DNA of 64,000 bases, taken from positions 1,248,001 through 1,312,000 of the forward strand of contig OY970296.1 of NCBI GenBank assembly GCA_963716175.1. The letters are read 5' to 3'. Below, in pieces: positions 20,366 to 62,197 of the stretch (position 1 is the stretch's first letter; each line of letters starts with the position of its first letter). The stretch comes from an uncultured Armatimonadetes bacterium (GTDB taxonomy: Bacteria > Armatimonadota > Hebobacteria > Hebobacterales > Hebobacteraceae). The notes beneath the pieces are model-generated. The model searched no databases, was not told where the DNA came from, and worked only from the letters and a program-made list of their open reading frames with translations. The position numbers were made by a program, and so were the translations under genes.

Positions 20366-20400
20366 GGCGGGCATCCGTCAGTGCCGGATACCCGCCCTAC
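20366..20400 (-). repeat. GTAG-REP hairpin (long loop)
   Basis: ggcgggcatccg...cggatacccgccctac. Confidence 0.65.
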
Positions 20401-20412
20401 AGAAAAACAAGC

Positions 20413-20545: not shown

Positions 20546-20556
20546 GGAGGTGAGGA

Positions 20557-25883: not shown

Positions 25884-27581
25884 GTGATAGCAAGTGGACT
25901 GCGCCGGGCGCTCCCATTCCTGCTGCTGACCGCGGGCACGGCTGCCCTGTTCCTCGGGGGGCTGGGCCGGCTTCCCCTCTTCGGGCGGGACGAGGCCCTC
26001 TACGCCGAGGCGGGGCGGGAGATGCTCGCCACCGGAGATTGGGTTACACCCCGGGTCAACGGCGGCCCCTTCTTCGAGAAGCCCCCGCTCTACTACTGGG
26101 CAGCCGCGGCCAGCTACCGCGCCTCCGGGGTGTCTCCGCTTTCCGCTCGTCTTCCCTCCGCGTTGATGGCGATAGCGACGGTGCTGTTGACCGCCCGCAT
26201 CGGGGCCCGGGTGTGGGGAAGGCGAGCCGGCCTGCTGGCCGGGATCGCGCTGGCAACCTCGCTGCAATTCGCGTTGATCGGCCGCCTGGGGATCATGGAT
26301 GCGCCTCTGACCTGCCTGACCGTGCTGGCGCTGCTGGCCTATGAGCGCTGGCAGCGGATGGGCGGATGGGGCGCGCTGGCTGGATTCGGCGTCACGGTCG
26401 GGCTTGCGATCTTGCTGAAAGGGGCGGCCGGGCTCATCCCCTGGGGTGTGGCCGTGGTGGATGCGCTGATCAGGATGGCGCGGCGAGAGCGCATCGGCCA
26501 CACGCCGCTGGCGCTGGTCGGGTCGGCCGTCATCGCGGGCCTGGCCTCGGCCGCGGTGGCCGCGCCCTGGTTTCTGGCGATGACCGCGCGCCATGGCTCG
26601 GCCTTCGGTGCGACATTCTTCGTGCACGAGCACCTGAGGCGAGTTGCCCAGGCCATGCAGGGGCACGGTGGGCCATTCTGGATCTACTTGCCGATGATCG
26701 CCCTCGGCTTCTTCCCCTGGGTGATCTTCCTGCCGGCCGGCCTGCTCCGCCCGCCCCGGGCAGAGGCGGCCGCGTGCTGGCGCGTGCTCTGCCTGGTCTG
26801 GATCGCCTGCGTCCTGGTGGTCTTCTCGGCCGTCCGCACCAAGCTGCCAGGGTACATCACGCCGCTCTTTCCGCCCACGGCGCTGCTGGTCGGGGCTGAA
26901 CTGGACCGGCGCCTGGCCCAGCCGGGCCGGGGGCCTTGGGTCGCGCTGATCCTGGGCGCGGCCCTGCTTGGCGCGCTGGTGACCAGGTTGCCGGTGGCAG
27001 CTTCGCGGCTGGGCGAGAGGGTCGGTGCCGCGCAGCAGGGGGCGCTGTTGTTCTGGCCGGTGTTCATCTGGGTGGCGGGTTATGTCATCATCGCGGTGGG
27101 AGCATGGGCGGCACTGCGGGGCCGGCCGGGGCGCGGACTGCCCGTGATAATGGCAGGCCAGGCCGCGACGCTGGGCGCGGTGCTGATCGGTATACTGCCA
27201 TTGCTGTCGCCCTATCTCGGCGGAGGGAGCGCGCGGCTGGCCTCGCTGGCAGCGCGAGAGCTACCCCGGAGCGCCCTCGTGCTCTATGAGACTCGCCCCG
27301 AGACGGTGAACTTCGCACTCCAGCGAACCGTGCCCACCTTCGATCGCCATCAACAGGAAGCGCTGGCGGCTGCTCTGCGCGCCGGCCCTACCGCGCTGAT
27401 CGCGCCGGCGAAAGAGGCGGCGTTCTGGAAGGCCCTGCCAATTCGCCGCAGGTGGCAGGTCGGAGATCGGGTGCTGCTGGATATCCCCCCACAGGTAGGG
27501 CTGGTCCCCCTAGGCCGCTTGCAGCGGCCGGGGTGGCGGCCCCCAGGCAGGCCTGGCCACGCGACCGGCCCCAAAAGCTGA
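25884..27581 (+). CDS. ArnT/PMT-like membrane glycosyltransferase (GT-C)
   Basis: RDEALYAEAGREM..GDWVTP..FEKPPL; RTKLPGY. Confidence 0.9.
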   Translation: MIASGLRRALPFLLLTAGTAALFLGGLGRLPLFGRDEALYAEAGREMLATGDWVTPRVNGGPFFEKPPLYYWAAAASYRASGVSPLSARLPSALMAIATVLLTARIGARVWGRRAGLLAGIALATSLQFALIGRLGIMDAPLTCLTVLALLAYERWQRMGGWGALAGFGVTVGLAILLKGAAGLIPWGVAVVDALIRMARRERIGHTPLALVGSAVIAGLASAAVAAPWFLAMTARHGSAFGATFFVHEHLRRVAQAMQGHGGPFWIYLPMIALGFFPWVIFLPAGLLRPPRAEAAACWRVLCLVWIACVLVVFSAVRTKLPGYITPLFPPTALLVGAELDRRLAQPGRGPWVALILGAALLGALVTRLPVAASRLGERVGAAQQGALLFWPVFIWVAGYVIIAVGAWAALRGRPGRGLPVIMAGQAATLGAVLIGILPLLSPYLGGGSARLASLAARELPRSALVLYETRPETVNFALQRTVPTFDRHQQEALAAALRAGPTALIAPAKEAAFWKALPIRRRWQVGDRVLLDIPPQVGLVPLGRLQRPGWRPPGRPGHATGPKS

Positions 27582-33871: not shown

Positions 33872-34879
33872 ATGAGCGAGGCGCGAGTGCGGTTGAGGCC
33901 GATCACGGAGGCCGATCTGCCGGACTACGTGGTGTGGCTGAACGACCCGGAGGTGACGCAGTTCATGGCCGCGGAGGCTGGGAACTACACGCTCGAGAGA
34001 GAGCGGGAGTGGCTCGCGCGCATCTCTGACCCCGAGTGCCGTGAGCGCCACTGGGCTATCGAACTGGATGGGCGGCATATCGGCAACTGCGCGCTGATGC
34101 CTGACTCGGCCGGGCAGACCGCCGGGTTCGGGATCATGATCGGTGATAAGAGGGCCTGGAACAAGGGCTACGGCACGGCGGCCCTGCAGCAGGTGCTGCG
34201 GATCGGGTTCCAGGAGATGGGGCTGCACCGGATTCACCTGGAGGCCTTCAGCGGCAACGCCCGCGGCATCCGCTGCTATCAGAAGTGCGGATTCCGGCAT
34301 GAGGGAGTGGCGCGCAAAGCGCGGCTCAAGCGGGGCGAGTGGGTGAATGTGGTGAGGATGGCGATGCTGCGCGAGGAATGGGAGGCCTGTAGGGCGGGCG
34401 TTCCCACGCCCGCCGGGGCGGGGTTCGGTGACCCCGCCCTACAGCAGATCGCAATCCGCAGCTACCGCGGGGCTGACTATGAGCAGGCAATCGCTTTGTG
34501 GGAGGCGGTAGGCTTCAACGTGAGAGGGAGGGGCGATAGCAGAGAGGCGATTCAGTACAAGCTGGCCAACGACCGCGGGCCGTTTCTGGTGGCCGAGATG
34601 AGCGGACACGTGGTAGGCACGGCGATGGCAAGCTGGGACGGGCGGTGGGCCTGGGTGTATCGGCTAGCGATAGACTCGGATCACCGGTGCAGAGGGATCG
34701 GTCGCCGGTTGATGGTGGAGGTGGAGCGCCGACTGGCCGCACTCGGCACGCAGCGCATCCACCTGGTCACGGGAGAGGAGAACGGTGTCGCCAGGGCGTT
34801 CTATGAGAGTCTGGGCTATCAGCCGGGGGACGACCTGGTGGTGATGCGGAAGACCCTGCCTGTGGGCGCAAGCAGGTAG
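33872..34879 (+). CDS. Tandem GNAT acetyltransferase (RimJ/RimL-like + RimI-like)
   Basis: WNKGYG..N.RGIRCYQKCGF and HRCRGIG..N.VARAFYESLGY; SD AAGGAGG. Confidence 0.9.
   Translation: MSEARVRLRPITEADLPDYVVWLNDPEVTQFMAAEAGNYTLEREREWLARISDPECRERHWAIELDGRHIGNCALMPDSAGQTAGFGIMIGDKRAWNKGYGTAALQQVLRIGFQEMGLHRIHLEAFSGNARGIRCYQKCGFRHEGVARKARLKRGEWVNVVRMAMLREEWEACRAGVPTPAGAGFGDPALQQIAIRSYRGADYEQAIALWEAVGFNVRGRGDSREAIQYKLANDRGPFLVAEMSGHVVGTAMASWDGRWAWVYRLAIDSDHRCRGIGRRLMVEVERRLAALGTQRIHLVTGEENGVARAFYESLGYQPGDDLVVMRKTLPVGASR
34389..34442. repeat. Inverted GTAG-REP doublet (54 bp) in frame in the GNAT linker
   Basis: gtagggcgggcgttcccacgcccgcc + ggggcggggttcggtgaccccgccctac. Confidence 0.85.
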
Positions 34880-36513
34880 AACGCGGTGTCGCCGGCGCGG
34901 GCGGGCTGCCACCGGGATCGGTAGATGTGCCAAAGGTCGGAGACGGCAGCGATCTGCTGGCCGTAGCGCTGCAGGGTGATGGGGTCGAACTGGACCGCCT
35001 CCTGGAGGATGAAGACGCGGGCTTTCTGGGCGAGGGTGCGATCAATGGCCTGGCGCACCCGCTGCACGTAAGCCTGAGGATTGCCGGCCTCGCCATAGGC
35101 AGCAGTGAGGCTCAACACCCTGGCCCTGGTGAACCGCCTGACATACCCCGCCAGGATCCACTCGCGATCTATGATGATCAGGTCCCTGGGCCCGGCCAAG
35201 GCGGCGAGGGGCTCGACCTTGTGATAGTAGTAGTCGGTCTGCGGCGTCACCAGGAAGGTGATGCTGCCCAGGAGGTTCACCAGGAAGAGCAGCGCGGCCG
35301 GAACTGAGAGCGCGAGCAGAGTGCGCGTCCGCGACTGCTCTCCAGCGGTCACAAGCGCAATGAAGAGCAACCAGCAGCAGACAGACTGGGGGATCCAGAA
35401 CTCCAGGTTGGAGGGCTCCCAGAAGAAAAAGAAGGCGCTGTAGATCGCCAGCCAGGCGAGGGTGAGGGGCACCAGGCCGTGGGGCTCTCGCCAGAGCAGT
35501 CGCAGGTTGCGCAGTCGGGAGGCGAAGAGCCAGACCAGAATGACCCCCAGGAGGAGCGAGAGCGCGAGCAGGGCCAAGGCCGTCCTCGCCGAGAGGGAGT
35601 GTGTGACGAAGGCATCGTCCATCAGCCAGTGGCCGGCCAGCACCCGCTCCAGCGACGCTTTCGCCACCGGAATCGCCCACATGAAATGGAAACCGATGAT
35701 AGCGTGGCCGACACCGATCAGAGCCTTCACCAGGGTGGAGAGGGCAAGCCGCTGCCAGAGATCGGATTGGTGGGCATAGAGCGTGAGCCAGTACCAGGCC
35801 TGTGCCGAGGTGCGGAGATGTAAGACGACAAGCATGACCAGAGTGTAGGGCAGTACTACCAGGGGCAGGAAGACCAGGGCATAGGCGGCCCCTGCCCGCC
35901 AGGGCGAGGGCACCTGGCGGCGCCGAATCAGCAGGGCGAGCAGCACCACCGGGAGGAAGAGCAGGTGGGCCTGATGGAAGAGCACGGCCAGGCCCGTGGT
36001 GAGGCCCACCGCGGCGCATCGCCTGCTATCGAGGCGGTCGCCCGTGAGCAGATAGAGCGAGAGCAGGAGGAAGAAGAGGGGGATGACGTAAACCTCAACG
36101 CAGTCGCTGTAGAACCAGAGGCCGAACGAGAACGCGGGCAGGGCAGTGGCGAGTAGGGAGGCGCTGATGTTCAGCCGCAGGCGCGCCCGGAGCAGCAGGT
36201 AGAAGACGCAAAGGGTGAGCGCGCCGAACACGGAGTTGAGGAGAGAGACGATCACCGCGCTGTCCGCTCTGACGCCGAGAGCGCGCCAGAGGTCCAGCCA
36301 GATTGCAGCAGAGGCGTTGTAGAGCAGGTGGTGGGGGTGGAAGAGGTCGACGCGAGCGTCAATGGCGTTGATGTAGGCGATGCTGTCATGGGAGGCCGAG
36401 AGGTTGCGCGAGACGGTGGAGGCGTACAAGGCGAGTGACAGGAAGAACGGGAGCAACAGCTCGCGAATCGTAGGCAGCGGGGCTCTCGCGGAGGATGTAG
36501 CTTGCGCCTGCAT
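34819..36513 (-). CDS. Polytopic membrane protein, GT-C/DUF2723-like glycosyltransferase
   Basis: HDSIAY..HPHHLLY, VEVY, GLAVLFHQ; many TM segments. Confidence 0.65.
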   Translation of the reverse strand: MQAQATSSARAPLPTIRELLLPFFLSLALYASTVSRNLSASHDSIAYINAIDARVDLFHPHHLLYNASAAIWLDLWRALGVRADSAVIVSLLNSVFGALTLCVFYLLLRARLRLNISASLLATALPAFSFGLWFYSDCVEVYVIPLFFLLLSLYLLTGDRLDSRRCAAVGLTTGLAVLFHQAHLLFLPVVLLALLIRRRQVPSPWRAGAAYALVFLPLVVLPYTLVMLVVLHLRTSAQAWYWLTLYAHQSDLWQRLALSTLVKALIGVGHAIIGFHFMWAIPVAKASLERVLAGHWLMDDAFVTHSLSARTALALLALSLLLGVILVWLFASRLRNLRLLWREPHGLVPLTLAWLAIYSAFFFFWEPSNLEFWIPQSVCCWLLFIALVTAGEQSRTRTLLALSVPAALLFLVNLLGSITFLVTPQTDYYYHKVEPLAALAGPRDLIIIDREWILAGYVRRFTRARVLSLTAAYGEAGNPQAYVQRVRQAIDRTLAQKARVFILQEAVQFDPITLQRYGQQIAAVSDLWHIYRSRWQPARAGDTAFYLLAPTGRVFRITTRSSPG

Positions 36514-36706: not shown

Positions 36707-37498
36707 ATGAGGCCCGACCTCACGCGTTACGAGGACCCCTGGACGGCCGAGGTTTATGACTACGAGGTAGGAGCATCCTGGGGCGAGCGGGATGTTGAGT
36801 TCTACCTGGGCCTGGGGCAGCAGAGCGCCGGGCCTGTGCTCGAGCTGGCCTGCGGGACCGGCCGGGTGGCGCTGCCTCTGGCCCGGGCTGGGGTGAAGAC
36901 AACCGGCCTGGATATCTCGCCGCACATGCTGGCGGCAGCGGAGCGCAAGGCGGCAGCGGAGGAGCCCGACGTTCGGGGCCGCCTTCGGCTGGTTCAGGGG
37001 GATATGAGCGCATTCGAATTGGGCCGGCGCTTCGGCCTCATCATCGTCCCCTTTCGCGCGTTCCAGGCATTGCTGGAGCGGGAGCAGCAGCGGGGGTGCT
37101 TGGTGTGCTGCGCGCGCCATCTGCATCCAGACGGGAGGCTGGTGATCAACGTGTTCAACCCGCTGCTGAGCCGCCTGGCGACGAAGGGCGAAGTGGAGGA
37201 GGAGCCGGATGAGTTTCCGGGGCCGGAGGGGGTGATGGTGCGCTGGAGCGCGCACACCAGCTACGACACGGCCGGGCAGAGACTGATCTCGCGCCAGCGC
37301 TACCAGTGCGCGGCGGCCGACGGCCAGGTCCAGGTGCGCGAGCACGTGCTGGAGCTGCGCTACATATTCCGGTTCGAGATGGAGTGGATGCTGGAGGCCT
37401 GCGGGTTCGCGGTGGAGGATCTCTATGGCAACTTCGATCGCAGCGCGTTCGCAGCCGACAGCCCAGAGATGATCTTCGTGGCGAGGAAGATGAGGTGA
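36707..37498 (+). CDS. Class I SAM-dependent methyltransferase
   Basis: VLELACGTGR, GLDISPHML, QGDM. Confidence 0.92.
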   Translation: MRPDLTRYEDPWTAEVYDYEVGASWGERDVEFYLGLGQQSAGPVLELACGTGRVALPLARAGVKTTGLDISPHMLAAAERKAAAEEPDVRGRLRLVQGDMSAFELGRRFGLIIVPFRAFQALLEREQQRGCLVCCARHLHPDGRLVINVFNPLLSRLATKGEVEEEPDEFPGPEGVMVRWSAHTSYDTAGQRLISRQRYQCAAADGQVQVREHVLELRYIFRFEMEWMLEACGFAVEDLYGNFDRSAFAADSPEMIFVARKMR

Positions 37499-38925
37499 GG
37501 GGGCAGCGCGCCTGCGCTGACCCCGATGGGGCGAAGAGGGACAGCGGGCCGCCATCACCGAAGCAAAACAGCGCCATTCTCATCGCTCTCGCGCTCGTCC
37601 TCTGGGCGCTGTTCTGGCTGTTTGCCCACACTGACCGCTCGCTGGGCATGCGTGGGCGGCAGATGCTGCTGTTCTTCGCCGCGTTCACAGTATTTCTGGT
37701 CGCCGTCCGCATCATCTGGCGAGTGGGAGCCGGGGCATCGGCGCGGCTGGTCTGGTTCATTATTATGGCCGGCATCGTCTTCCGGCTGAGCGTGGCGCCC
37801 GCGCTGCCGGTCACGAGCTCGGATATCTATCGCTATCTCTGGGAAGGACGCGTGGTGCGCGCTGGGTTCAACCCCTTTAGCGACGCACCCGACTCGGAGC
37901 GGCTGGCTCGCCTGCGGAGCTGGCCCTGGGAGTGGGTGGACTTCAAGCAAGTGCCGGCCGCGTACCCTCCCGTGGCGCAGTACGTGTTTGCCGTCAGCGA
38001 CTGGATCTCGGGCGCATTCCCGCCCGCCGGCCGGGTGGTGGCGCTCAAGCTGATGCTGGCCGCCTTCGATATCGGGACCGTGCTGCTGCTCCCGGGACTG
38101 CTGGTGCGGCTGGGCCGGCCTCCGGCCTGGGCGCTGCTCTATGCCTGGCACCCCCTGGTGGTGGGCGACGTGGTCGCGCGCGGGCACCTCGATAGCATCG
38201 GGATCTTCTTCCTGGTGCTGGCGGCGCGCTTGCTGCTGCTCGGCTCCCCGGCCGGCCGTGGTCTGGCGGGCGCGGCGCTGGGCGCGAGCGTGCTGGCCAA
38301 GGGCTACGCGCTGTTAGCGCTGCCGTTCCTGCTGCTGGCAGCGCGGCCGCATCGCGTGAGCTTCGCGGCCGGCCTGCTCGCGCTGACGGCGGCCGCCTAT
38401 CTGCCATTCGCTCGCGCCGGAGCAGCGGTCCTGGGCGGCATCGGCCTCTATAGCCGGTACTGGCAGGGGAACTCCAGTGTCTACTCGGTGGTGCGTCTGG
38501 CTCTCGCCCCCTTGGCGCGGGACCCCGCCCTGGTGGCGCGGTGGATCTGCGTGGCTGGTCTGCTGGCCTGGGTGCTCTTATTGCTGGTACGCTCGACAAG
38601 AGGCGGGGAGGAGCTGGACGCTCTCGATCTCTGCTTTCTTTCGCTTGCCGGGTTCTTCTTGCTGAGCCCCGCGGCCTACCCCTGGTACCTGGCGTGGACT
38701 GTGCCTTTCCTCTGCCTGCGGCCTCGCCCGGCCTGGCTGCTGCTGACCGGGACCATCTTCGGGTTCTACGGCCACGACCTCGCCGGGCACCGGGTCGAGA
38801 TCTGGTGGGTGACTGTTCTCGAGTATTTGATGCCACTGCTGGCGGGTGCCGCCCTGGCGCTCAGCGCCTCCCGCGGCTCGTCGCCGGCCAAGAATTCTCC
38901 CCATTCCGGGCGGTTTATCTGTTGA
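37495..38925 (+). CDS. GT87/DUF2029-like membrane glycosyltransferase
   Basis: SSDIYRYLWEG..G.NPF, YPP.AQ, YAWHPL, GHLD, YPWY. Confidence 0.8.
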   Translation: MRGQRACADPDGAKRDSGPPSPKQNSAILIALALVLWALFWLFAHTDRSLGMRGRQMLLFFAAFTVFLVAVRIIWRVGAGASARLVWFIIMAGIVFRLSVAPALPVTSSDIYRYLWEGRVVRAGFNPFSDAPDSERLARLRSWPWEWVDFKQVPAAYPPVAQYVFAVSDWISGAFPPAGRVVALKLMLAAFDIGTVLLLPGLLVRLGRPPAWALLYAWHPLVVGDVVARGHLDSIGIFFLVLAARLLLLGSPAGRGLAGAALGASVLAKGYALLALPFLLLAARPHRVSFAAGLLALTAAAYLPFARAGAAVLGGIGLYSRYWQGNSSVYSVVRLALAPLARDPALVARWICVAGLLAWVLLLLVRSTRGGEELDALDLCFLSLAGFFLLSPAAYPWYLAWTVPFLCLRPRPAWLLLTGTIFGFYGHDLAGHRVEIWWVTVLEYLMPLLAGAALALSASRGSSPAKNSPHSGRFIC

Positions 38926-38950
38926 CACCGCTTTGATCGAGTGCTATATT
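38922..38950 (+). promoter_or_regulatory. sigma70 promoter overlapping the upstream stop codon
   Basis: TTGACA-17 bp-(TGC)TATATT. Confidence 0.75.
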
Positions 38951-39746
38951 GCCAGGTAACCGGGCGGGGGGGATCGCTGAGCCCATCCGAGAGTCCTGCT
39001 GAGTTCCTGTTACCGCCGGCAAATAGATGCGCGAGGCGGGGATAGTACGGCCGGCTTCGGGCGGGGACCCTCGTTGTTCTCTGCCGCCGTTCTCCCTGGT
39101 AAGACACGAGTGCTGTAGTCATTGAGTACCCGCGCGGCTCCTGGCCTGCAGCAGAGCGTGCTACGCCTGGCCTCGCACTGAGGAAGGTCTGAGTCCGGGT
39201 TTTCGTCACGACAGCAGGCAGCCGCCTTCGGCGGCAGGTAGTCCTCTAGCAGCCACGCAGATTGCACCCATTGCAGCCCCCGGTGATGTGAAAGTCGTTT
39301 GCGGCCCTGGCGGTCGCGTGAGTGAGCGCGAGTCGGGCCAGGGGGGCCGGCCCGAGGGGTTACTGGAAGAGTCACCCACTAGACCAGCCGGCTCCCCGGC
39401 TCGGCTGAACCGGAGGGAGTGACGTCGGGTGCAGTGCACCCGTAAGGGCTGATGACGTACCAGGCCGAGAGGCGACACCGGCGCTGGAGCAGCGGCGCTG
39501 CGTCGGACCTGAGACCCAGCAGAGGAGGTGATGCAGTTGGGATTGGTGGCAGCGAAGGACCGAGGAGCCAGGACGAGCACTTGGAAGGGCCGTCACTGGG
39601 CACCCCCCGGTCCAGCTCTAGTATTGCCACATCTCTCCCCCTAAGTAAACCCCTGTGTGGTTCCACCCAACCCGCGCGTGGTGGCGCGGGGGCACACCCG
39701 GAGGCCTGGAGTCCGGGCAGACGGAGATGAAAAGGAGAGGTAGACA
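38951..39746 (+). other. Long structured 5' leader or ncRNA candidate
   Basis: about 800 nt without a credible long CDS, many hairpins. Confidence 0.5.
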
Positions 39747-40448
39747 ATGCGTAAGGTGATGCTTCTTGCCCTCGTGGCCGCATTCGCGCTGAGCGCGGCG
39801 GCGGCCTTTGCCAATCCCGCCATCAACGATGGGCTGATCCCGGAGATTAATCCGGGTCACCTCGGAGGCGCGTCCGACAACTTCGTCGAGTTGTCTGGCG
39901 GCGGCTGGTGGGACGGCGTCTACGACTACGATGGGCCCAACCCCTGGATCAACATCGGCGGCAGCCTCGCGACCGAAGACATGAACGTGACCTGTGATGT
40001 CGAGCTGTACTGCTACGAGTCGCTGTCCGCGAACAACGTCTACTTCCACTTCAAGGGCGATTCGTATGCCCCGATGTCGGCCGTCATTGACGGTCTGATC
40101 AAGTCCAATAACGGCGAGTCCGTGGGGGTTGAACTACCCATAGGCAAGACTCTGCTCCAACTCGTCGGGACTACGGATGGCTGGGGCCGCGATGTGACTG
40201 CAGCCCCCGGCTACGATCCCATCCCGGTCACCTGGGAGCTGAGTGAAGACGGCGGCGCCAACTGGCGCACGGCCGACGACACTGGCATGGGGGCCAACGA
40301 GACTGTCTACGCCATGTGGTGGCTACTGGCGGCGGGCGACCCGTGCGACCATGCCTTCAAGTACCGGATCACGGTCTCACCCAAGTACCACCAGCCTGAT
40401 GGACATTACGTGCTGGATCCCAGGGTGGTTGTGGACCCGGTTCTGTAG
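39747..40448 (+). CDS. Secreted acidic beta-rich protein, putative major fibre/surface subunit
   Basis: Sec signal MRKVMLLALVAAFALSAAAAFA, SD AAGGAG, C-terminal strand YVLDPRVVVDPVL. Confidence 0.7.
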   Translation: MRKVMLLALVAAFALSAAAAFANPAINDGLIPEINPGHLGGASDNFVELSGGGWWDGVYDYDGPNPWINIGGSLATEDMNVTCDVELYCYESLSANNVYFHFKGDSYAPMSAVIDGLIKSNNGESVGVELPIGKTLLQLVGTTDGWGRDVTAAPGYDPIPVTWELSEDGGANWRTADDTGMGANETVYAMWWLLAAGDPCDHAFKYRITVSPKYHQPDGHYVLDPRVVVDPVL

Positions 40449-40502
40449 CGGAGCCAGAACCTTCCCTGGCTAGGGGCTCACTCAGAGCCCACGGACTAGC
40501 GG

Positions 40503-40535
40503 CGGGGCGCGGGCTGCGCCGCAGCCCGCGCCCCG
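40503..40535 (+). terminator. 15-bp GC hairpin after the subunit gene (stabiliser or attenuator)
   Basis: cggggcgcgggctgc-gcc-gcagcccgcgccccg; no long U tract. Confidence 0.6.
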
Positions 40536-40555
40536 GATTCCCTGGAGCAGCAAGG

Positions 40556-42211
40556 TTGCGGGCTACTCCTCCCTACAAGCGTGATCGGAACCTGATCGCC
40601 GGGCTAGCGGCGGCCTGTTTGCTGCTGGCGATTCGCCCGGCGCTGGCCCAGCTCACTCTGGTGCCGCCCATCCGGGAAGTGTCGCTGCGTCCTGGTGCCT
40701 CGGTTGTGTTCCCGGTGCAGATTTCGAACGCCGGGAAGGAGGCACTGACCTGTGACATGAGCGGAGAAGACATGGAGCTGAGCGCGGTTGGGCGGCCCCA
40801 GACCGCTACGGAGGGGTACACGCGGGGCTGCGGAGGGTGGGTGAGCTTCAAGCCGGCGCGGTTCGAGCTTGGGGCCGGTCAGTCACAGAAAGTCGCGTGC
40901 ACCTTGCGCGCACCGCGCGGTACCAGCGGCGGCTACTACGCTCGGCTTCGCTGCTTGGCTAGGCCGGGCCGAGGCGCTGATCCCATACGTGGCGGCGCCA
41001 TCACCTTCGAGTACCAGATGAGCTGTGCCCTGCTGGCCATTGTCACCTCCGGGCGGCTTCACAGCAACATCTCGGCGAAGTCCATCCAGCTCTCGACCAA
41101 CCCCGGGCGAGCGCGAGCAAGCGGCTCTCCGGCCTGGGCGGCGCGTGTCGCGGTGCGGAACACGGGGAATGTTCACGCCATGCTCGAGGGCAGAGTGAGT
41201 ATACTGGACGAGCATGGTCGGGCGATGGCCCGCGCACCACTCCTGGGGGGGCGCGGCTATGTCCTGGCCGGGGGTGAGCGGGTCTTCCAGAGCTCCGGAT
41301 CGGAGCATCTGCCTGACGGGGTATACGCGCTCGCGGCGTCACTCCATCTCGCCGGCCGCAGGTCTGCACCCACCATCGCCAGCGTCTCCTTCACCATCCT
41401 GAACGGCGAAGTCCACCAAGGTGAGCCGAGCCCGGAGTCCCGGGCCCTCCTTGCCAGCCTGAACCCGGGATTCTACCTGGAACGGCCCACGGTCGAATTC
41501 GCCCTCAGCCCTGGAGGTAAGCGGCGTCAACTCGTGCCTATCGTCAACCGCACCGATCAGCCGATCGAACTTGCCGCGGAGCTTCGAGAGTGGGAGCTTG
41601 ATGCCCAAGGCGAGCTGACCTTTCCCCCCGGGCGGCCGGGGCACGGTCGAAGCTGCGCCGGCTGGCTGAGGGTCGAACCACCCGCCGTCACGTTACCTCC
41701 GCGAGGTCGCGCGCGCGTCGCGCTGCAGATCACGATGCCAAAGCAAGCGCACGGGGAGTACTATGCCGCGGTCGGGTTCAAGCGGCCAGACCAGACGAAG
41801 TCGTCGGACTCCGCGGCGCTGATCGCCGGCAGCGTGCTGGTGACCGCACGCGCCCGCCGCACGGAGAAGCCTGAGATCCAGGTGGCAAGCTTCGCGTTGT
41901 CAAAGCAGACACCTCGAAGCACCACCTTCCGACTGAGCGTGCGGAATTGCGGCAATGTCGAGTGCTTTGCCGAGGGTCGGGTGGCTGTCCTGGATAGCCG
42001 ACGACGCGTGGTGGTGGAGAACCTCCAGTTTGGCAGTGAGCAGCAGACACTCCTGCCAAAGGGTGTCCGCACGTTCGAGATCACGTGGCCTGGAGCGCTA
42101 TCCCCGGGGCCTCACACCGCGGTGATCGCGTTGAACTACTATCGCGGCACCACGGCACTTGCTAAGGAGGTGAGCTTTGCAGTGCCAGCTTCTCCCAAGA
42201 GGCGGAGCTAG
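40556..42211 (+). CDS. Secreted tandem Ig-fold protein (PapD/DUF916-like pilus chaperone module x2)
   Basis: signal peptide; duplicated module L.PG..N..C.GW..P..L....V....P...G.YYA followed by VRN.GNV...GRV..LD. Confidence 0.65.
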   Translation: MRATPPYKRDRNLIAGLAAACLLLAIRPALAQLTLVPPIREVSLRPGASVVFPVQISNAGKEALTCDMSGEDMELSAVGRPQTATEGYTRGCGGWVSFKPARFELGAGQSQKVACTLRAPRGTSGGYYARLRCLARPGRGADPIRGGAITFEYQMSCALLAIVTSGRLHSNISAKSIQLSTNPGRARASGSPAWAARVAVRNTGNVHAMLEGRVSILDEHGRAMARAPLLGGRGYVLAGGERVFQSSGSEHLPDGVYALAASLHLAGRRSAPTIASVSFTILNGEVHQGEPSPESRALLASLNPGFYLERPTVEFALSPGGKRRQLVPIVNRTDQPIELAAELREWELDAQGELTFPPGRPGHGRSCAGWLRVEPPAVTLPPRGRARVALQITMPKQAHGEYYAAVGFKRPDQTKSSDSAALIAGSVLVTARARRTEKPEIQVASFALSKQTPRSTTFRLSVRNCGNVECFAEGRVAVLDSRRRVVVENLQFGSEQQTLLPKGVRTFEITWPGALSPGPHTAVIALNYYRGTTALAKEVSFAVPASPKRRS

Positions 42212-42269
42212 CAGCTTGCCGCGTCGGCGACAGAACATGGCTGGCAATCGCTTTCCGGGAGGAAGTTGC

Positions 42270-43763
42270 ATGCGCAAGAGTGTTCTCGCGCTCGTACTGC
42301 TCTGCCTCCTTCTCGTCGGCAGCCCCGCATCCCGCCTGACCGCTGCCAGGGGGGCTGGCGATGAGGAAGCTCCGAAAGCCACCGAGGAGCAGGCGGCGCC
42401 CACTCCTCTGGCCGCGCCCTCCGTCTCGGCCGGGAGCGGCGAAATCCGCCGCAACGAGGCCGGCACTCCCCTCATCACCAACGTCTTCGCCGATACCGAC
42501 CTCCGCCAGGCGCTCTCCGATGTCGCGGCCCAGGCCGGGGTGGTGATCATCCCCGACGCCACGGTCCAGGGCACGGTCAGCGCCGACCTGAAAGATGTCC
42601 CACTCGAAAGCGCGCTGAGGATGCTGCTCATCTCGGGCGGCTATGCATTCAAGAAGATGGATGGCTACTACCTGGTCGGCGCTCCCGATCCCGCGAACCC
42701 CAATTTCTACCTGTTCAGCGAGACCGAAGTGGTGGAGCTCAATTATCTGGACGGCAATGCCGTCACCGCTTACCTGGTGGGCCCCTATGGCAAGTACGTC
42801 ACCGTGGAAGGAGCGCCGGCCCCGGAGCCAGAGCGGCAACAGGAGCGGCCGGCTCGCGCCGGCTACCAGCGTCCAGCGGCGGGCGGGCGCGCGACGATAG
42901 GAGGCACGCGACTCTTCATCACCGCGCCTCGCGAGATCATCGAGCGCATCAAGGCCGACCTGGCGCTGATTGACCGCCCGCGCACCCAGGTGATGCTGGA
43001 GGCAGTGGTGCTGGAGGTGACCGAGGATGCGCTGAAGGAGATCGGGGTGGATTGGGCCACCCGCTGGATTCGTTTCGCCTCCCAGGTAGGTAGCGTGCCG
43101 ATCGGCGCCCAGGGCTTCCAGGCGACTACCGGCCAGCCCACACTGACGTTGCCCGCGGGTTCATTCACCTATTCGGACCTCTCCTTCACGGAGATGGCCC
43201 AGTTGACTGCTCTCGTGGAGAAGGGCAAAGCCCGCCTGCGAGCCAACCCCCGGGTGGCGACCATCGAGGGCCAGACGGCCGAGATTGAGGTGGGCCAGGA
43301 GAAGTATTTCGCCATCGTCACCGGTCCGGTGACGTACCCCTACACGACCCTGCAACAGATTCCCTCGGGCATCACCCTCCGGATCACGCCGAGCGTGGTC
43401 GAGCAAACCAGGGAGGTGGTGGCGCGGGTGGAGCCGGAGGTGCGGGATGTCACAGGGAAGGGACCCAACGACCTGCCGGAGATAACCTATCGGCGGGCAG
43501 TTACGAACGTGCGGGTCAAGGACGGCCAGAGCATAGTGATCGGCGGACTGGCCAGTGAGTTCACCACCCGCACCACGGCCAGCTTTCCGCTGCTAGGGAA
43601 CCTGCCCCTGATTGGCAATCTCTTCCGACGGACGACCTCTCGTCAGACCAAGACGGAGGTGATCATCGTCATCACTCCCCATATCCTGGATGAGGCCGGA
43701 ACATACCCCGGTCGGCCAGAAGTCATCGGTCCAGATCGGAGCCCTAAGCCGGGCCAGCCCTGA
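42270..43763 (+). CDS. Secretin (GspD/PilQ family)
   Basis: N0/STN-like FADTDLRQAL, IDRPRTQVMLEA, ANPRVAT..GQTA.I.VG, G.TLRITP, VKDGQSIVIGGL, P.LG.LPLIG.LF. Confidence 0.92.
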   Translation: MRKSVLALVLLCLLLVGSPASRLTAARGAGDEEAPKATEEQAAPTPLAAPSVSAGSGEIRRNEAGTPLITNVFADTDLRQALSDVAAQAGVVIIPDATVQGTVSADLKDVPLESALRMLLISGGYAFKKMDGYYLVGAPDPANPNFYLFSETEVVELNYLDGNAVTAYLVGPYGKYVTVEGAPAPEPERQQERPARAGYQRPAAGGRATIGGTRLFITAPREIIERIKADLALIDRPRTQVMLEAVVLEVTEDALKEIGVDWATRWIRFASQVGSVPIGAQGFQATTGQPTLTLPAGSFTYSDLSFTEMAQLTALVEKGKARLRANPRVATIEGQTAEIEVGQEKYFAIVTGPVTYPYTTLQQIPSGITLRITPSVVEQTREVVARVEPEVRDVTGKGPNDLPEITYRRAVTNVRVKDGQSIVIGGLASEFTTRTTASFPLLGNLPLIGNLFRRTTSRQTKTEVIIVITPHILDEAGTYPGRPEVIGPDRSPKPGQP

Positions 43764-43765
43764 CT

Positions 43766-46700
43766 TCAGAACTTGATGCTGAGGGTGCGGCGGCGGGTCA
43801 TCTGCTGCTGGTCGGCGGTGACCTCGGCCTGGTCGAGGCCAGCTTCGGGGGCCAGGCCAAAGACGGCGGCCGCCAGCAGGTTATCCCCGCCCTGCTCCAG
43901 GGGTGGAGCGGGAAGAGGCAGGCGATAGGCGCCATCGCCCTGGCAGTCCGCGAAACGGGTGCCGTTGAGGTAGAGCAGCGCGCTGCCGTGCAGGCCCAAG
44001 TCCAGGTAGTAAGGGATGCGCCAGGTCCCCGCCCGAGGCAGTCCGAAGGCCACCCGATACCAGCCCACGCCCCACATCTCGGCCAGCTCGCGCCCCTGTG
44101 CGCGCCACGCGCCCAGGCGAAGCAGATGCCACTGGCTGGCGTCAAGATCCAGCTTGGCCCAGCCGGCCGCCTCCCCAGCCGGGCCGGAGCAGACCTCCCA
44201 GTTGCCGATGGGGACGCTGCCCTGGGCGCCAACCAGGGAGACCTCCGGAACACGCTTCGCCTCCCATAGCCCCGCGAATCCATCCTTGCGGGGCATGATG
44301 TCGAGAATGATCTCGATCTGATTGGGGCCTGCGGTCAGCAGCGCGGCAACATCGGCCTCGCGTTCGGGCGCGCTGCCGGAGAGTTCCAGCGCCGGCTTGC
44401 CGTTGATGAGAACGAGCGCGGGGTCGGTGGAGCCGGAGATCCGCAGGCGAGTTGACGCGCCGGACTCAAAGCTGGCGCGCAGGCGAGCGAAGCTACCGGC
44501 CCTCAGGTCCAAGGCCTCGGGTGCGAGCCCGAGACTGGGAACGGAGTGGCACACGCCCGCGGGAGCGGCGTCATCGGGCAGGAACCCGGCGCGATCGAAG
44601 CGCGCGGCGAGCTTGGGGGGCCCGCCCAGGAGGGCGTGACCCAAGCGCTGCAATCCGGTGGCGCGGCGCTCCTCCGCGAAGGGCTCGGTGGCGATGAAGC
44701 AGGTGAGCACCCGAGAGGGAGTGGCGAAGGAGAACTCCAGCGGTGCGCCGTCCAGGGTCACGGCGGAGGGCGGCGCCGGCAACGCAGCCGAGACCTGGAG
44801 ACTTCCTGCCTGGCAATCGAGCGCCACTTCGGCCAAGGATGGCGTGATGGAACCGCCCACAATGGCAGCGCCGGCGCTCAGGGCCAAGCCACCCGAGGGC
44901 CCGGCGATGTCGCCGACCCAGGCCGCGCGCTGGTGGGAGAGGATGGCGATTTCGAGGTCGTCAACCAGCAGATACTGATCCTGCCGGGAGTGGAAGTAGT
45001 CCAGGATGAGCGTGCTCTTCTCGGGGTCCCAGCGCTGCCGCTTGACCTCACCCGAGACCAGGGGCGGGCCCGGCCAGCCGAGGGCGACCTCGCCCGGAGT
45101 GTCCACATCCCCATAGAGCACCAGCAGCGTACGCTCTCCCACCTGTTGGAGGCCGGCGATCTCGGAAGTGGAGTAGTGCAGGAGGCCGCGCCCCACCGGA
45201 ACGCCCAGAGGCAGAATCTTGGCAGAGCCAGCGGGCAGGGTGATGCTGCCGGCCTCGGGGATGCTCACGGCGGCGGCGGTGCCAGGCGGGGTGTAGGTCA
45301 GCCGCACCTGGTGAGCCGCGCTTTTCTCGTCCCACAGGAAGAGGAAGCCGGCCTTTTCCCCCAGGCGGGCCGCGATCTGGACCCCGGGGTCGTCGGCTTT
45401 GGCGATCCCCTCGGCGGCCACGGCCCCGGTCAGCTCCGGGCCGAAGAGGCGCACGAAGCTCCCGATCAGCCGTACCTCTGGGTAGCCTGGGGTGCGGGCG
45501 CCGGCCAGGTCAATGATGCCGGCCGCGGGCTGGCCTGGCAGATAGGGCCCGGTTGCCTCCAGGCCCGGGGCGAAGTCCGAGAGCAGGATAGCGGTAGCTC
45601 CAAGACCGAGTGCGGCCTTGGCTGTGGAGGCGCTGCGGCGAGCGGCCTGCGGGCTGTCGCAGCTGCCGGGAAGGCTGGAGAGAACCGCGGGCCCGTTCTC
45701 CTCGCTGACCAGGGCCCGCAAGCTGGCGAGGACATCCGGCAAGCTCGCGGCTCCGTAGAAGGCCAGGGTGTCGAGCACGTTGGCGAGGCTCTGCCTGCTA
45801 TTGCCGCGGGCGGCCGGCGCGTTGGCGGTGAGCACCGGCACCTGGATGCCGGCCCCTCGTACCAGTTCGAGGAGGGCCTGAAGGGCGCCCGCGTCTACGC
45901 GGCCGCTCCGGTCGGGAAGGGGCCGGATGAGGACGTCCGCAATGGGGCCCCGGTTGGTCAACTGATAGCGCTTCACCATAGGAAGGAGGGCGCGATACCA
46001 GTCCGCGACGGCGCCCTGAAGGTTCTCCCCCGAGGCGCGGCCCAGCGCCCACCCCGGCACCCCGCCGGCCTCCCAGTCATCACCAGCATAGGGCCCGAGA
46101 TCGAGCTGCACCCAGAGCCCAGCTTCCTGGCAGAGGTCCAGGAACGCTTTCAGATCGGAGAGGTCGAGCTGGTCCGGCGTGGGCTGATGGTGGGCCCACG
46201 GAACCGTGACGGCCACCGTGTTCATCCCGGCGGCCTTGAGCAAGGACAGCCGGTCGGCCCAGACTGCTTTCGGGAGGCGAGCGTAGTCAATGCCGCCGCC
46301 GAAGACGACAACCGGCTGGTTGGCGAAGGCGAAGGCGCGGCGATCGAAGCGCGCCATCTCCGGCTTGGGAAATGACGGCCGCAGCGAGGCCGGCCTGGCG
46401 GCGGCGACCACCAGCCCGGCGGTGTCGGGCGCGAGCACCACCGCGACGGTCCGCTCCAGGCAGCCCTTGATGCCGGCGCCGTCATCATCGCAGGCGGAGA
46501 CGCTGAGATTGAGAGGCTGACCTGGGATGGGGCGAAGCGGGGCGAGCTCGGACCAGGGGAGGGCCAGCTCATAGCTCACGCGCCAGCCATGGTCCTCCGG
46601 CCGCGCCCAGATGCCCCGGCCCACGTTCCTGAGCTCGCCGGCGCGGGCCGCCGGCTGAGCGCGCCAGACCAGGGAGGCTCCTCTCAGCAGGGCCACCACG

Positions 46701-47101
46701 AACTGGTTCGCGGGCTCGGGGCCTTCGCCGGTGAGGGCGAGGACGATGCTGTCACCCCGATCGACCTCGGAGGGCGAGTGGACGCGAACCAGCACATCAT
46801 CGCGAACATCAATGGCCAGATAGAGCGCGCGGTTATCCCAGACCAGCCGGATTTCCGCGGAGATATCCTGCGGGCCGCCGTAGACCGCGAACTGAGGGGC
46901 GGCGGGATGCCAGTCCTCGGCGCTGGCCATCACCACCTGCGGGAGCGGGGACCAATCATCCAGCCGCCCGTCCAGGACGGGACCAGTGACGACGCGGGGG
47001 CAGATGATCGGTGAGCTGGTCGGGTGAGGAGGCTGCGCCCAGGCCGGGCCAAGCACAAGCAGGAGCAGCGGTCCGAACCAGAGGGAGCAGGTGCGTGTCA
47101 T
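43766..47101 (-). CDS. Secreted CBM9-like + GH35 beta-galactosidase-like protein
   Basis: PVLDGRLDDW..WD..ALYLA (CBM9-like); GGIDYARLP..W.DRL..KAAGMNTV..VPW.HH..GPY..WEAGGVP.W (GH35). Confidence 0.75.
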   Translation of the reverse strand: MTRTCSLWFGPLLLLVLGPAWAQPPHPTSSPIICPRVVTGPVLDGRLDDWSPLPQVVMASAEDWHPAAPQFAVYGGPQDISAEIRLVWDNRALYLAIDVRDDVLVRVHSPSEVDRGDSIVLALTGEGPEPANQFVVALLRGASLVWRAQPAARAGELRNVGRGIWARPEDHGWRVSYELALPWSELAPLRPIPGQPLNLSVSACDDDGAGIKGCLERTVAVVLAPDTAGLVVAAARPASLRPSFPKPEMARFDRRAFAFANQPVVVFGGGIDYARLPKAVWADRLSLLKAAGMNTVAVTVPWAHHQPTPDQLDLSDLKAFLDLCQEAGLWVQLDLGPYAGDDWEAGGVPGWALGRASGENLQGAVADWYRALLPMVKRYQLTNRGPIADVLIRPLPDRSGRVDAGALQALLELVRGAGIQVPVLTANAPAARGNSRQSLANVLDTLAFYGAASLPDVLASLRALVSEENGPAVLSSLPGSCDSPQAARRSASTAKAALGLGATAILLSDFAPGLEATGPYLPGQPAAGIIDLAGARTPGYPEVRLIGSFVRLFGPELTGAVAAEGIAKADDPGVQIAARLGEKAGFLFLWDEKSAAHQVRLTYTPPGTAAAVSIPEAGSITLPAGSAKILPLGVPVGRGLLHYSTSEIAGLQQVGERTLLVLYGDVDTPGEVALGWPGPPLVSGEVKRQRWDPEKSTLILDYFHSRQDQYLLVDDLEIAILSHQRAAWVGDIAGPSGGLALSAGAAIVGGSITPSLAEVALDCQAGSLQVSAALPAPPSAVTLDGAPLEFSFATPSRVLTCFIATEPFAEERRATGLQRLGHALLGGPPKLAARFDRAGFLPDDAAPAGVCHSVPSLGLAPEALDLRAGSFARLRASFESGASTRLRISGSTDPALVLINGKPALELSGSAPEREADVAALLTAGPNQIEIILDIMPRKDGFAGLWEAKRVPEVSLVGAQGSVPIGNWEVCSGPAGEAAGWAKLDLDASQWHLLRLGAWRAQGRELAEMWGVGWYRVAFGLPRAGTWRIPYYLDLGLHGSALLYLNGTRFADCQGDGAYRLPLPAPPLEQGGDNLLAAAVFGLAPEAGLDQAEVTADQQQMTRRRTLSIKF

Positions 47102-47200
47102 GCCACAGAGCTCCTTGTGAGTGACATCGGACGCGAACGTTTGGCGAACAGCAAGCATCTAATGTGCATTGACACTTGTGGAGCGGCCGAGTTCGCCCGG

Positions 47201-50625: not shown

Positions 50626-50673
50626 GGGCAGGAGGCAAGCTCCTGCCCAACGCAGCAGGCCGGTCCGCCCTAC
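50626..50673 (-). repeat. REP pair (GTTG hairpin plus partial GTAG REP)
   Basis: gggcaggaggcaagctcctgcccaac; ccgccctac overlaps the upstream gene's stop. Confidence 0.65.
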
Positions 50674-52586
50674 TCCCACGTGGGCACGGAAATCTCGGCC
50701 CGGTAATCGCTCATGTTGTAGTGAGGCTGACGGCGAGGGCGGTAGAGGCGGCCCTCGGGCGGCGGCGTGTCCTGGGTGTAGATCCAGATGCGATCCAGGT
50801 CCCAGAGCAGGACCTCATCCCGCGGATCGCCGGTGAGATCGAGCGCCTCGGCGCAAAGGGTGGGGTGCCCATCGTCGGGGAAGGCGACCGCCCGGCGGAG
50901 GTGACCGTCCAGCATCCCGCCCAGTCGCAGGCTGCCTGAGGCCAGCAGGAGCTCCAGGCCATCGCCGCGCCAGTTGACCGGAGAGAGCACCGCGCCCCCA
51001 CCGGAGAGCTCGATAGAGTCGAGCATGTGGCCCTTGGCGTCATAGACGCAGATGATGTCCGGATTTCCCCAGAAGGTCTTGGTGATCACCTGGAGGCCGG
51101 GCACATCGTCTCTCACCCGGGCTGCGGTGAGGCGCTGCACGTGGCCGGTGCGATCGCGCCAACGGATGCGGCCCTGCGGATCGCAGGCCACCGTGCCTCC
51201 ATCGCCACAGGCGAGGGCGATCGAGGGCTCGGCGTCATCCAGGTCCAGAGGCGCGATGGCAATCGCGTCCTGGTGATCCTCCACCTCGATGCGCCAGAGC
51301 ACCGTGCCGTCATGGTCTACCAGGGCATACCCAATCATGACCTCATCCCGGCCATCCCCGTCGAGGTCGGCCACTGCGGGGAAGTGGCCGGTGTTGCCGT
51401 GGAACCGCCAGAGGGGCTGGAGGCGATCATCGTAGGCCCAGAGATTGCTGTAGCGATCCTTGATCAGCAGGTCGCGTCGGGCGCCCAGGCCCCTGAGGTC
51501 GGCGAAGCAGATGCAATCTCCGGGGATGCGAAAGAGGTCATCCTCGCGCAGCCAGGTGGCCATCGGGCCGGGCTCGGGGGTGGGCGCGGCGTACTTGAGC
51601 CGGCCGGTGTTCCCCTCCAGCACACAGATCTCGAAGTTGCGGCAGCAGATCACCTCGGCCTGGCCGTCACCGTCGAAGTCGTGAATCTGGAAGCAGAGGT
51701 CCGCGGGGATGATGCCATGAGCGCGGTTGGGCTCACCCCATTGCCAGAGTACCTGCCCGTCGAGGTCAATGGCGGTGAGGCAGCTCAAGCAAGCGAAATC
51801 GCCGCCGCCGAGCATGTCCGTGTATTGGGCGAGCACAATCTCCAGGCGTCCGTCGCCATTCACGTCGCCGAAGCGGAGATGGCGCCCGGTGCCGAACTCG
51901 GGGGTTTCGATCTGGCGCCAGAGGCGAGGTCGGGGCTGCCCGGGCAGGTCTTGGGGCAGGCCGGCGGCCTGCCCTGCCGCGTCAGCCTCCGCTTCGACGC
52001 GGGCGAAGCGCGCCGGGCCGGTGGCGAGCAGGCCAATCCGTCCCCGACTGAGGGCGTGATCCTCGACCGCGAAGAGCGCGCTGCCATCGAGGGAGGCGCG
52101 CAGGCGGCCGCCCTGGGCCTCCAGCCTCAGGAGATGGTAGCGGCCGCAATCAGGCTGCCATTGGGCCTGGGCGAGGACCGCCCTGTCTTCATGCTGGCGG
52201 CGCACCAGGCGCACCAGGCCATCACCGCCGATGCGAAGCGAGTAGTGGGTGCGGTTGTTCCGGTAGCGAAGCGCGATCCCGGCCTCGCTGTGGCGAGAGA
52301 GCAGGCGCACTTCGGCCTCCAGGGCCAGGTCGCGCCACCCGGAATCCCCCGCGGCCAACATCGGCATGCCCTCCCGGCGCAGGCGGGCTTGCTGCATCAC
52401 CCGGCGGCCGCCATCCTCCACCACCTGCCAGTTGCCGAGGTGCCCCCAGCTGGTGTGATTCGTGGTCTCCACCCATCCGCCTGGCAGCTCCGGCAGATCC
52501 AGACAGTGGTACTCGCCCACCGCGCTGTAGTCGTAGGGCAGATCGCCAAGCTTGAACTGCTGGAAGTGATCATGGAAAACCCTCAT
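50670..52586 (-). CDS. DUF1080-like domain + FG-GAP beta-propeller (PL11 rhamnogalacturonan-lyase-like)
   Basis: repeated D.[ND]GDG..E Ca-binding loops, GNTGH, DHQD; start could be 52649. Confidence 0.7.
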   Translation of the reverse strand: MRVFHDHFQQFKLGDLPYDYSAVGEYHCLDLPELPGGWVETTNHTSWGHLGNWQVVEDGGRRVMQQARLRREGMPMLAAGDSGWRDLALEAEVRLLSRHSEAGIALRYRNNRTHYSLRIGGDGLVRLVRRQHEDRAVLAQAQWQPDCGRYHLLRLEAQGGRLRASLDGSALFAVEDHALSRGRIGLLATGPARFARVEAEADAAGQAAGLPQDLPGQPRPRLWRQIETPEFGTGRHLRFGDVNGDGRLEIVLAQYTDMLGGGDFACLSCLTAIDLDGQVLWQWGEPNRAHGIIPADLCFQIHDFDGDGQAEVICCRNFEICVLEGNTGRLKYAAPTPEPGPMATWLREDDLFRIPGDCICFADLRGLGARRDLLIKDRYSNLWAYDDRLQPLWRFHGNTGHFPAVADLDGDGRDEVMIGYALVDHDGTVLWRIEVEDHQDAIAIAPLDLDDAEPSIALACGDGGTVACDPQGRIRWRDRTGHVQRLTAARVRDDVPGLQVITKTFWGNPDIICVYDAKGHMLDSIELSGGGAVLSPVNWRGDGLELLLASGSLRLGGMLDGHLRRAVAFPDDGHPTLCAEALDLTGDPRDEVLLWDLDRIWIYTQDTPPPEGRLYRPRRQPHYNMSDYRAEISVPTWE

Positions 52587-52634
52587 CGGCGCGGTCCTAT
52601 TCAGCCATTCATCAGGCCCTACCCCGGCACGGGC

Positions 52635-52764
52635 TAGAGCGCATTTCATAACCTACCGGCTGGCTGGCCGCACCACGCCCTCGCATGAAATGCGCCGGCC
52701 ACGGCCTGACGTTGCGCAGTGCTGTTTCATAACCTCCCCTGGGAAGGTTATGAAACAGCTTCTA
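52635..52764. mobile_element. MITE-like element with imperfect 20-bp terminal inverted repeats
   Basis: TAGAGCGCATTTCATAACCT vs revcomp TAGAAGCTGTTTCATAACCT (15/20); internal 15-bp hairpin 52721-52759. Confidence 0.5.
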
Positions 52765-62123: not shown

Positions 62124-62197
62124 CGGGGCGTAGCGCAGCTTGGTAGCGCGCCTGCCTTGGGCGCAGGAGGTCGCGTGTTCAAATCACGCCGCCCCGA
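62124..62197 (+). tRNA. tRNA-Pro(TGG)
   Basis: acceptor cggggcg/cgccccg, anticodon arm cctgc-cttgggc-gcagg, T loop ttcaaat; CCA not encoded. Confidence 0.95.

Follow-up and report, generated by a model that had tools for sequence, protein, structure and literature searches.

In Proteobacteria-type cells, donor-strand fibers require both a chaperone and an usher. Since 2026, monoderm cells have been recognized as a second setting, in which the chaperone is of the WxLIP type and anchored in the membrane and there is no outer pore. Secretins are, to our knowledge, described solely as outer rings of machines driven by ATP. Here, we analyzed a 64,000-nucleotide stretch of DNA (the window; contig positions 1248001-1312000) from the genome of an uncultured Armatimonadota bacterium of soil or sediment (4.56 Mb in a single contig, ~67% G+C, 90.85% complete by marker genes). 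Three genes of the window, designated A, B and C, encode a secreted pilin-like subunit, a periplasmic tandem chaperone-like protein and a short secretin. We propose, with a probability of about 0.55, that they form an usher-less and ATPase-less donor-strand pathway for a fiber or surface protein, which would leave the cell through its dedicated secretin.

The Elr pilus of Enterococcus faecalis is a closely related described system. Its membrane-anchored donor-strand chaperone ElrE (DUF916-DUF3324) was reported, from cryo-electron microscopy and pull-downs, to nucleate a donor-strand exchange pilus with ElrC/D as its WxL pilins, and the Foldseek matches given for ElrE are CsuC, CfaA, Caf1M and EcpB (bioRxiv 10.64898/2026.10.17.759780). 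The same preprint finds the WxL/Elr system only in Bacillota (48 of 4,698 genera) and a membrane helix in 96.7% of WxL chaperones; the words 'secretin' and 'diderm' are absent from it (bioRxiv 10.64898/2026.10.17.759780). The long hairpin of WxLIP, which is unstructured in the free model, is predicted to insert into WxL (Protein Sci 2023, PMC10599100). Protein B shares ancestry with the DUF916-type chaperone of this system, whereas its host is diderm, B itself is tandem and soluble and lacks a membrane helix at its C-terminus, Pfam detects no WxL domain in the subunits, the C-terminus of A shows no LPxTG motif, and a dedicated secretin is attached. The lack of a membrane anchor and of a WxL domain, together with the diderm host, excludes the module from the Elr/WxL system. 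With chaperone-usher pili (archaic Csu and CupE; alternate CFA/I, CS1 and CS17) it has in common the two-domain PapD-like fold, but its outer-membrane component is a secretin, its chaperone is duplicated in one chain, and no sequence similarity to chaperone-usher proteins was detected. It is placed outside the chaperone-usher pathway because it has no match to the Pfam Usher or PapD sequence families. In its mode of action, the module is most like these two systems, chaperone-usher and Elr/WxL.

Three further groups of described systems show partial likeness. The Pam pili of candidate phyla radiation (CPR) bacteria are described with PamA/B as pilins, which are reported to be CPR-specific, and PamC/D as putative chaperones (bioRxiv 10.64898/2026.03.03.709456). 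They share with our module donor-strand Ig-like pilins, chaperone-like operon partners and the lack of a classical usher, whereas their host is a monoderm CPR bacterium and the abstract has no secretin; this distinction is drawn from their description. Compared with the GspD, PilQ, Tad RcpA and SctC machines, protein C shares an N3-like domain, the secretin domain and a probable N0 domain, but it has no N1/N2-type rings, falls into a separate clade, scores below all subtype cut-offs and has no ATPase, platform or pilin genes nearby; none of the curated secretin systems includes it. TLP-1a/b, fibrils from pond water, are described as donor-strand polymers of a 236-residue secreted protomer with unknown assembly machinery, in which the N-terminus, unmodelled in the monomer, becomes the donor strand (CryoSeek, PMC11494351; PDB 9ikj, 9ikk). 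The model of A is weakly similar to TLP-1 and its conserved N-terminal ~60 residues are likewise unmodelled, which serves as a lead only; neither the A family nor one other subunit type gave a PDB sequence match to TLP-1. A full-text literature search, with subscription-only papers outside its reach, found among the matches listed no publication pairing a secretin with a WxLIP/DUF916-like chaperone. The combination of donor-strand chaperone systems with secretins, in many phyla, is apparently not in print.

The locus and its secretin

Positions 39747-43763 of the window contain three co-directional open reading frames (ORFs), all on the + strand and lying where an earlier sequence-only reading of this DNA had placed them. 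The features of the locus are as follows (window coordinates).

38926..39746, +: non-coding stretch of 821 nt upstream of gene A, presumed promoter or leader
39732..39740, +: Shine-Dalgarno-like AAGGAGAGG ahead of gene A, from sequence reading; ATG of gene A at 39747
39747..40448, +: gene A, secreted pilin-like subunit of 233 amino acids, with a signal-like segment (1-22), an extension (~23-84) and a beta-sandwich (85-233)
40503..40535, +: GC-rich hairpin between A and B, a 15-nt inverted repeat without a U-tract
40556..42211, +: gene B, periplasmic tandem chaperone-like protein of 551 amino acids, TTG start
42270..43763, +: gene C, short secretin with probable N0/STN domain, Pro/Arg-rich linker, N3-like domain and secretin domain

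The ORF of C opens at 42177 with TTG, overlapping the end of B, and encodes 528 amino acids; the ATG at 42270 is the likelier start because the alignment with five orthologues begins there. Its assignment as a short secretin, made by the sequence-only reading, was borne out by a strong match to Pfam Secretin (PF00263; E 2.8e-39, 134.8 bits versus a cut-off of 27.5, ORF residues 345-504). The STN/N0 model matches ORF residues 123-169 at E 1e-5 (25.6 bits versus a cut-off of 28.4), and the N0 model also matches the C orthologue in a related genome (G001) at 1.2e-3. C scores far below the cut-off of every NCBIfam secretin subtype (GspD 169 versus 351; PilQ 149 versus 284; SctC 127 versus 238; MshL 123 versus 250).

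The host genome gave nine secretin matches, 21 matches to T2SSE-family ATPases and one Omp85/BamA match; the single Omp85/BamA match together with the nine secretin matches indicates that the host cell has an outer membrane. Other host secretins lie near ATPase genes (contig positions 21,139 with 18,696; 3,276,407 with 3,274,486; 3,246,293 with 3,256,526), whereas the strong T2SSE match nearest to C is at contig position 1,630,310, ~340 kb away. A secretin tree was calculated from the last 330 residues, leaving out four loci whose best secretin ORF was shorter than 400 amino acids. In this tree, C and the secretins of 34 B-linked loci form one clade (support 96/87) with the other eight host secretins outside. 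The sequence-only reading had taken the secretin as dedicated and not as part of a standard type II secretion system or type IV pilus, which agrees with its position in a clade of its own, apart from the secretins found beside ATPases. The same genome carries three tandem secretin genes (526, 589 and 606 amino acids; contig 1423178-1428265, + strand), and the ~8 kb to each side of them hold no gene for a pilin, chaperone or ATPase; the three secretins group together (100/99) as the sister group of the B-linked clade.

The tandem chaperone-like protein

The N-terminus of protein B is signal-like, and neither B nor nine aligned relatives have a hydrophobic segment at the C-terminus. Its two halves match each other in BLASTP (E 2e-12, 26% identity), with module 1 covering approximately residues 32-290 and module 2 residues 303-547, each comprising two beta-sandwich domains. 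The Pfam matches of B are all weak (DUF4232 4.5e-6, fn3_5 1e-5, WxLIP_PGBD/DUF916 (PF06030) 0.017), and sub-threshold WxLIP_PGBD matches were found in four of the eight B-type proteins scanned (B itself and three of its seven relatives). A profile of the ten-member B family matched Enterococcus faecium WxLIP1 among PDB sequences with an E-value of 1.1e-7 (profile positions 44-163).

The AlphaFold2 (AF2) model of B has a mean predicted local distance difference test score (pLDDT) of 82.8 and contains four beta-sandwich domains. It includes a long hairpin of two strands (125-137 and 153-163), modelled with low confidence at its tip (pLDDT <50 at 145-147), which coincides with the aligned position of the WxLIP donor hairpin, and an alternating-hydrophobic strand is conserved at this site across the B family. 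The two-domain PapD-like chaperone fold is present in B, and there is no PapD family in its Pfam list. Judging from the profile match and the predicted structure, both halves of B are chaperone-type modules of two domains, homologous to DUF916/WxLIP and resembling PapD by fold only. The earlier description of B as two PapD/DUF916-like modules is consequently retained for the duplication, the chaperone fold and the WxLIP homology, while its PapD part is limited to the fold.

Two other assignments were considered for B and rejected. The top Foldseek rows (hydin, complement; TM-score ≤0.27), which would make B a generic Ig array, were set aside as domain-repeat matches, and a lipoprotein was rejected as the Cys in the signal region is not conserved among relatives. 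The B profile is widespread, with 20,303 representative clusters at E ≤1e-3, 9,689 at ≤1e-10 and 782 at ≤1e-30; the best 150 of these clusters are mostly full-length tandem forms of 500-600 amino acids. Both A and B are single-copy genes in the host genome (tblastn).

The pilin-like subunit

Protein A starts with a signal-like segment, MRKVMLLALVAAFALSAAAAFA/NPA, which ends in AFA/NPA as judged by eye. It was earlier described as a Sec-exported, beta-rich protein of 233 amino acids with a strong Shine-Dalgarno sequence and a 15-bp hairpin after it. The Sec-type protein, the AAGGAGAGG ahead of it and the 15-nt inverted repeat are all present. Nine relatives of A were found at 46-100% identity. 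In the AF2 model, based on a 12-row alignment, residues 85-233 form a confident beta-sandwich and residues 20-83 have pLDDT <50; this low-confidence stretch still holds the invariant residues G29, P36, G51, D60, D62, W67 and G72. Foldseek gave no match at E ≤0.001, with top rows to TLP-1a (1.5e-3), CfaB, SafA, PsaA, AggA and FimG; the best structural matches of the model are polymerizing pilins. The named neighbors of A in the ESM-Atlas, SCPU (0.91), WxL (0.89) and DUF4402 (0.89), are leads only. An assignment of A as ExtJ (NCBIfam E 0.048) was rejected, because the match spans only residues 1-24, that is, the signal peptide. In the predicted structure, the folded part of A looks like a chaperone-usher pilin with a conserved, unmodelled N-terminal extension, in line with the pilin-like subunit proposed from the sequence.

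Conservation of the module

Among 41 related genomes (host included), B was matched in 12. A C-like secretin follows B in seven of the first eight loci, the eighth being a contig end with a half-size B and A. At the level of the phylum, the B profile matched 94 of 401 genomes, and a C-like secretin adjoins B in 24 of the 30 best phylum loci, which include the locus of the window and the seven already examined. When loci were seeded with the secretin (n = 38), a B-like ORF was found directly upstream on the same strand in 27 and anywhere in the locus in 33. The labels of these secretin-seeded loci cover about ten phyla (Armatimonadota, Abditibacterium, Planctomycetia, Omnitrophota, Eisenbacteria, Latescibacterota, WOR-3, Ignavibacteria, Zixibacteria, Atribacter and others); the labels Solibacteraceae and Desulfuromonadales among them may reflect binning. 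Searches by tblastn with two host ATPases, which recovered the host paralogues as a control, revealed no T2SSE/PilT-type ATPase in 46 loci comprising 444,595 bases. The flanking genes are not conserved between loci.

All 24 loci examined for subunit genes have one to three same-strand ORFs of ~150-390 amino acids with a signal-like start upstream of B (identified by eye with a crude pattern), and many of these proteins end in a G-x-Y-x-G-x-h-x-F-like last strand (also by eye). Several subunit types were distinguished: A-like proteins ending in Y-x-L-D-P-x-V-V-x-P-x-L, proteins ending in W-x-D-R-P-G-x-Y-x-G-x-I-x-F-T-x-L-x-x-P, proteins with C-N-S-A-C-E-Y...Q-K-P-W-I-D, and proteins ending in D-x-Y-x-T-x-L-x-V-x-F-T-S-P. 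The second type had no Pfam family in any of its eight members (E ≤1), and no sequence link was found between the subunit types or from them to WxL or TLP-1. Some loci add a half-size, single-module B. Larger modules (L028, 5133-6216; L029, 5723-6773; also L077 and L093) carry two extra subunits of the W-x-D-R-P-G type and an extra half-size chaperone, which precede the A-like gene and the gene of the tandem chaperone. Such an arrangement suggests multi-subunit fibers.

From sequence profiles and predicted structures, the conserved unit consists of small secreted beta proteins, a WxLIP/PapD-like chaperone (usually tandem) and a dedicated short secretin; usher and ATPase are both lacking. The three-gene order, on which the sequence-only reading had relied, is thus conserved as an architecture built around the B-secretin core and not as three orthologues, A being one of several subunit types.

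No Pfam match to an usher, and a second cluster

Neither an usher nor an ATPase, prepilin, platform or other secretion or pilus family was detected by Pfam in 27 window ORFs (23.9-60.7 kb), as the sequence-only reading had noted for the operon. In the whole host contig, the Pfam Usher model (PF00577) gave no candidates, with detection of an E. coli positive control, and PapD_N (PF00345) had no matches at E ≤0.1. A second cluster without a secretin is located 1.23 Mb away (contig 2513665-2517952, - strand). It encodes two small secreted proteins ending in Y-S/T-Q-x-V/L-V-Y-T-L, followed by a single-module WxLIP-like protein (325 amino acids; PF06030 0.042) and, as the last gene, a 741-amino-acid secreted protein with CarboxypepD_reg/SdrD_B domains and a faint match to CooC_C, the C-terminus of the CS1 usher (0.041). 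Possibly, this cluster represents an usher-like system that relies on chaperones of the same superfamily. The expectation that the genome has no cognate usher is therefore upheld for the Pfam Usher and PapD_N families and qualified by this usher-like cluster, which has its own chaperone-like gene and subunits.

Proposed mechanism and alternative explanations

As the most parsimonious explanation, we infer that A is bound by B and polymerizes, that the tandem has a catalytic role and that the product passes through the secretin. According to this model, A and B would be exported by Sec, and in the periplasm each WxLIP/PapD-like module of B would cap the incomplete beta-sandwich of a subunit with a strand from its long hairpin (donor-strand complementation). 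The two modules on one chain would hold two subunits side by side and could take over the catalytic role of the usher, with the released folding energy driving growth as in chaperone-usher pili. The short secretin C would provide the exit for the product, with its probable N0 domain docking B. The earlier proposal of a chaperone-assisted fiber or surface layer exported through a dedicated secretin is supported by these results as far as sequence and predicted structure reach.

Several observations weigh against this model. We know of no secretin that passes a donor-strand polymer. The A family is rare, being matched in four of the 41 related genomes (host included) and detectable in six of the 30 phylum loci and four of the 38 secretin-seeded loci. 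A itself has no Pfam family at E ≤0.1, WxL (PF13731) included, and the best match of its family among PDB sequences is to a segment of BamA and is not significant (E 0.035). The relatedness of the subunit types is not detectable, the A family and the W-x-D-R-P-G-x-Y-x-G type having an hhalign probability of 3.6%; searches of PDB sequences gave one chance match for the latter (0.046) and none for the C-N-S-A-C-E-Y type at E ≤10. The WxLIP_PGBD/DUF916 score of B (15.6 bits) is below the cut-off of 27.3, and B has no membrane anchor, as opposed to 96.7% of WxL chaperones. Five of the 38 secretin-seeded loci have no B, one of them with only 180 bases upstream. In the related genome G001, the gene following B (locus L031, G001:C1:1650000-1668000; 9842-10552 within it) encodes a 236-amino-acid fragment with N0/STN only and is followed by a DUF2334 gene, so that this copy of the module looks decayed or rearranged. 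The second, secretin-less cluster is a further caveat.

The alternative that survives best, which we nevertheless regard as unlikely, is that B keeps A folding-competent for the secretin and that A ends as a non-polymerizing monomeric or oligomeric protein, either surface-bound, S-layer-like or released. The linkage of B to the secretin and the fold data apply to this explanation as well, the subunit genes are very diverse in sequence, as cargo would be, and type II secretins are established to pass folded proteins. It is disfavored by the best structural matches of A, which are polymerizing pilins, and by its conserved N-terminal extension, which is unfolded in the monomer model. Moreover, the homologous chaperone of E. 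faecalis nucleates a polymer, and export of this kind would have no obvious driving force without ATP or polymerization.

It is considerably less probable that B is a periplasmic partner of the secretin (an adaptor, gate-keeper or pilotin-like stabilizer), while the secretin serves a type II machine or type IV pilus whose genes lie elsewhere, A being unrelated cargo or a neighbor. The 21 T2SSE-family and nine secretin matches make detached parts conceivable in this genome, multi-Ig periplasmic scaffolds are common, and the top Foldseek rows of B are generic Ig arrays. However, at least three other host secretins are within ~10 kb of ATPase genes and C is not, and the B-linked secretins form their own cross-phylum clade with no ATPase gene in the 46 loci. 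In addition, both modules of B are specifically WxLIP/PapD-like as opposed to generic Ig, and secreted pilin-like genes precede B in 24 of 24 loci.

Finally, a module working inward, with the secretin as an uptake pore (as in competence) and A and B as periplasmic or surface substrate-binding proteins, is very improbable: secretins do serve DNA uptake in some bacteria, the HofQ and PilQ models match C weakly, and carbohydrate-active genes flank the locus (43766-47158; 50670-52649), but these flanks are not shared by the other loci, the window ORFs scanned include no transporter or competence genes, and no role in uptake is known for the chaperone and pilin folds. Among these readings, we favor the donor-strand pathway through the secretin at the probability given above.

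Non-coding features and neighboring genes

The 821-nt gap upstream of A (38926-39746) is unusually long for a promoter or leader. It contains no ORF with coding-like G+C content at third codon positions, and neither this leader nor the spacer between A and B matched an Rfam family at the gathering score. The A-B spacer is 107 nt long, and the folded stretch at 40449-40560 (112 nt) has a predicted energy of -67.5 kcal/mol (z -4.38), with none of 200 shuffles as stable. Because no U-run follows it, the A-B hairpin is not a canonical intrinsic terminator; it is possibly an attenuator or RNA stabilizer, and the idea that it makes A the most abundant product is a guess. The only Rfam matches in the window are a ribosomal L10 leader (20397-20546) and two tRNA genes (18152-18225 and 62124-62197).

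Upstream of the operon there are membrane glycosyltransferase-like proteins and a methyltransferase. Three of these genes, at 25884-27581 (+), 34819-36513 (-) and 37306-38925 (+), encode large membrane proteins that match glycosyltransferases of the PMT/TMEM260-like or GT87-like type, and they are not kept beside the module in other loci. Convergent to the secretin gene is a gene for a 1130-amino-acid GH35 beta-galactosidase-like protein with a CBM9-like segment (43766-47158, -), and a rhamnogalacturonan-lyase-like FG-GAP protein is encoded at 50670-52649 (-). The gene neighborhood looks like one of plant-polysaccharide degradation.

Implications

We tentatively suggest, at somewhat less than even odds, that the module represents an undescribed third donor-strand route, a chaperone-secretin pathway, in which the tandem chaperone replaces the usher platform and a minimal secretin replaces the usher pore. 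Such a route would span at least ten diderm phyla and thousands of chaperone clusters, would link the WxL/Elr system and the Pam pili of CPR bacteria to diderms, and could be a source of TLP-1-like orphan fibrils. If the proposed pathway is correct, it would represent a new role of secretins and a new means of crossing the outer membrane that needs no energy input. The WxL chaperone family, so far reported only from Bacillota, would then also reach many poorly studied diderm phyla, among them Armatimonadota, Planctomycetota, Zixibacteria, Ignavibacteria, Eisenbacteria and Omnitrophota.

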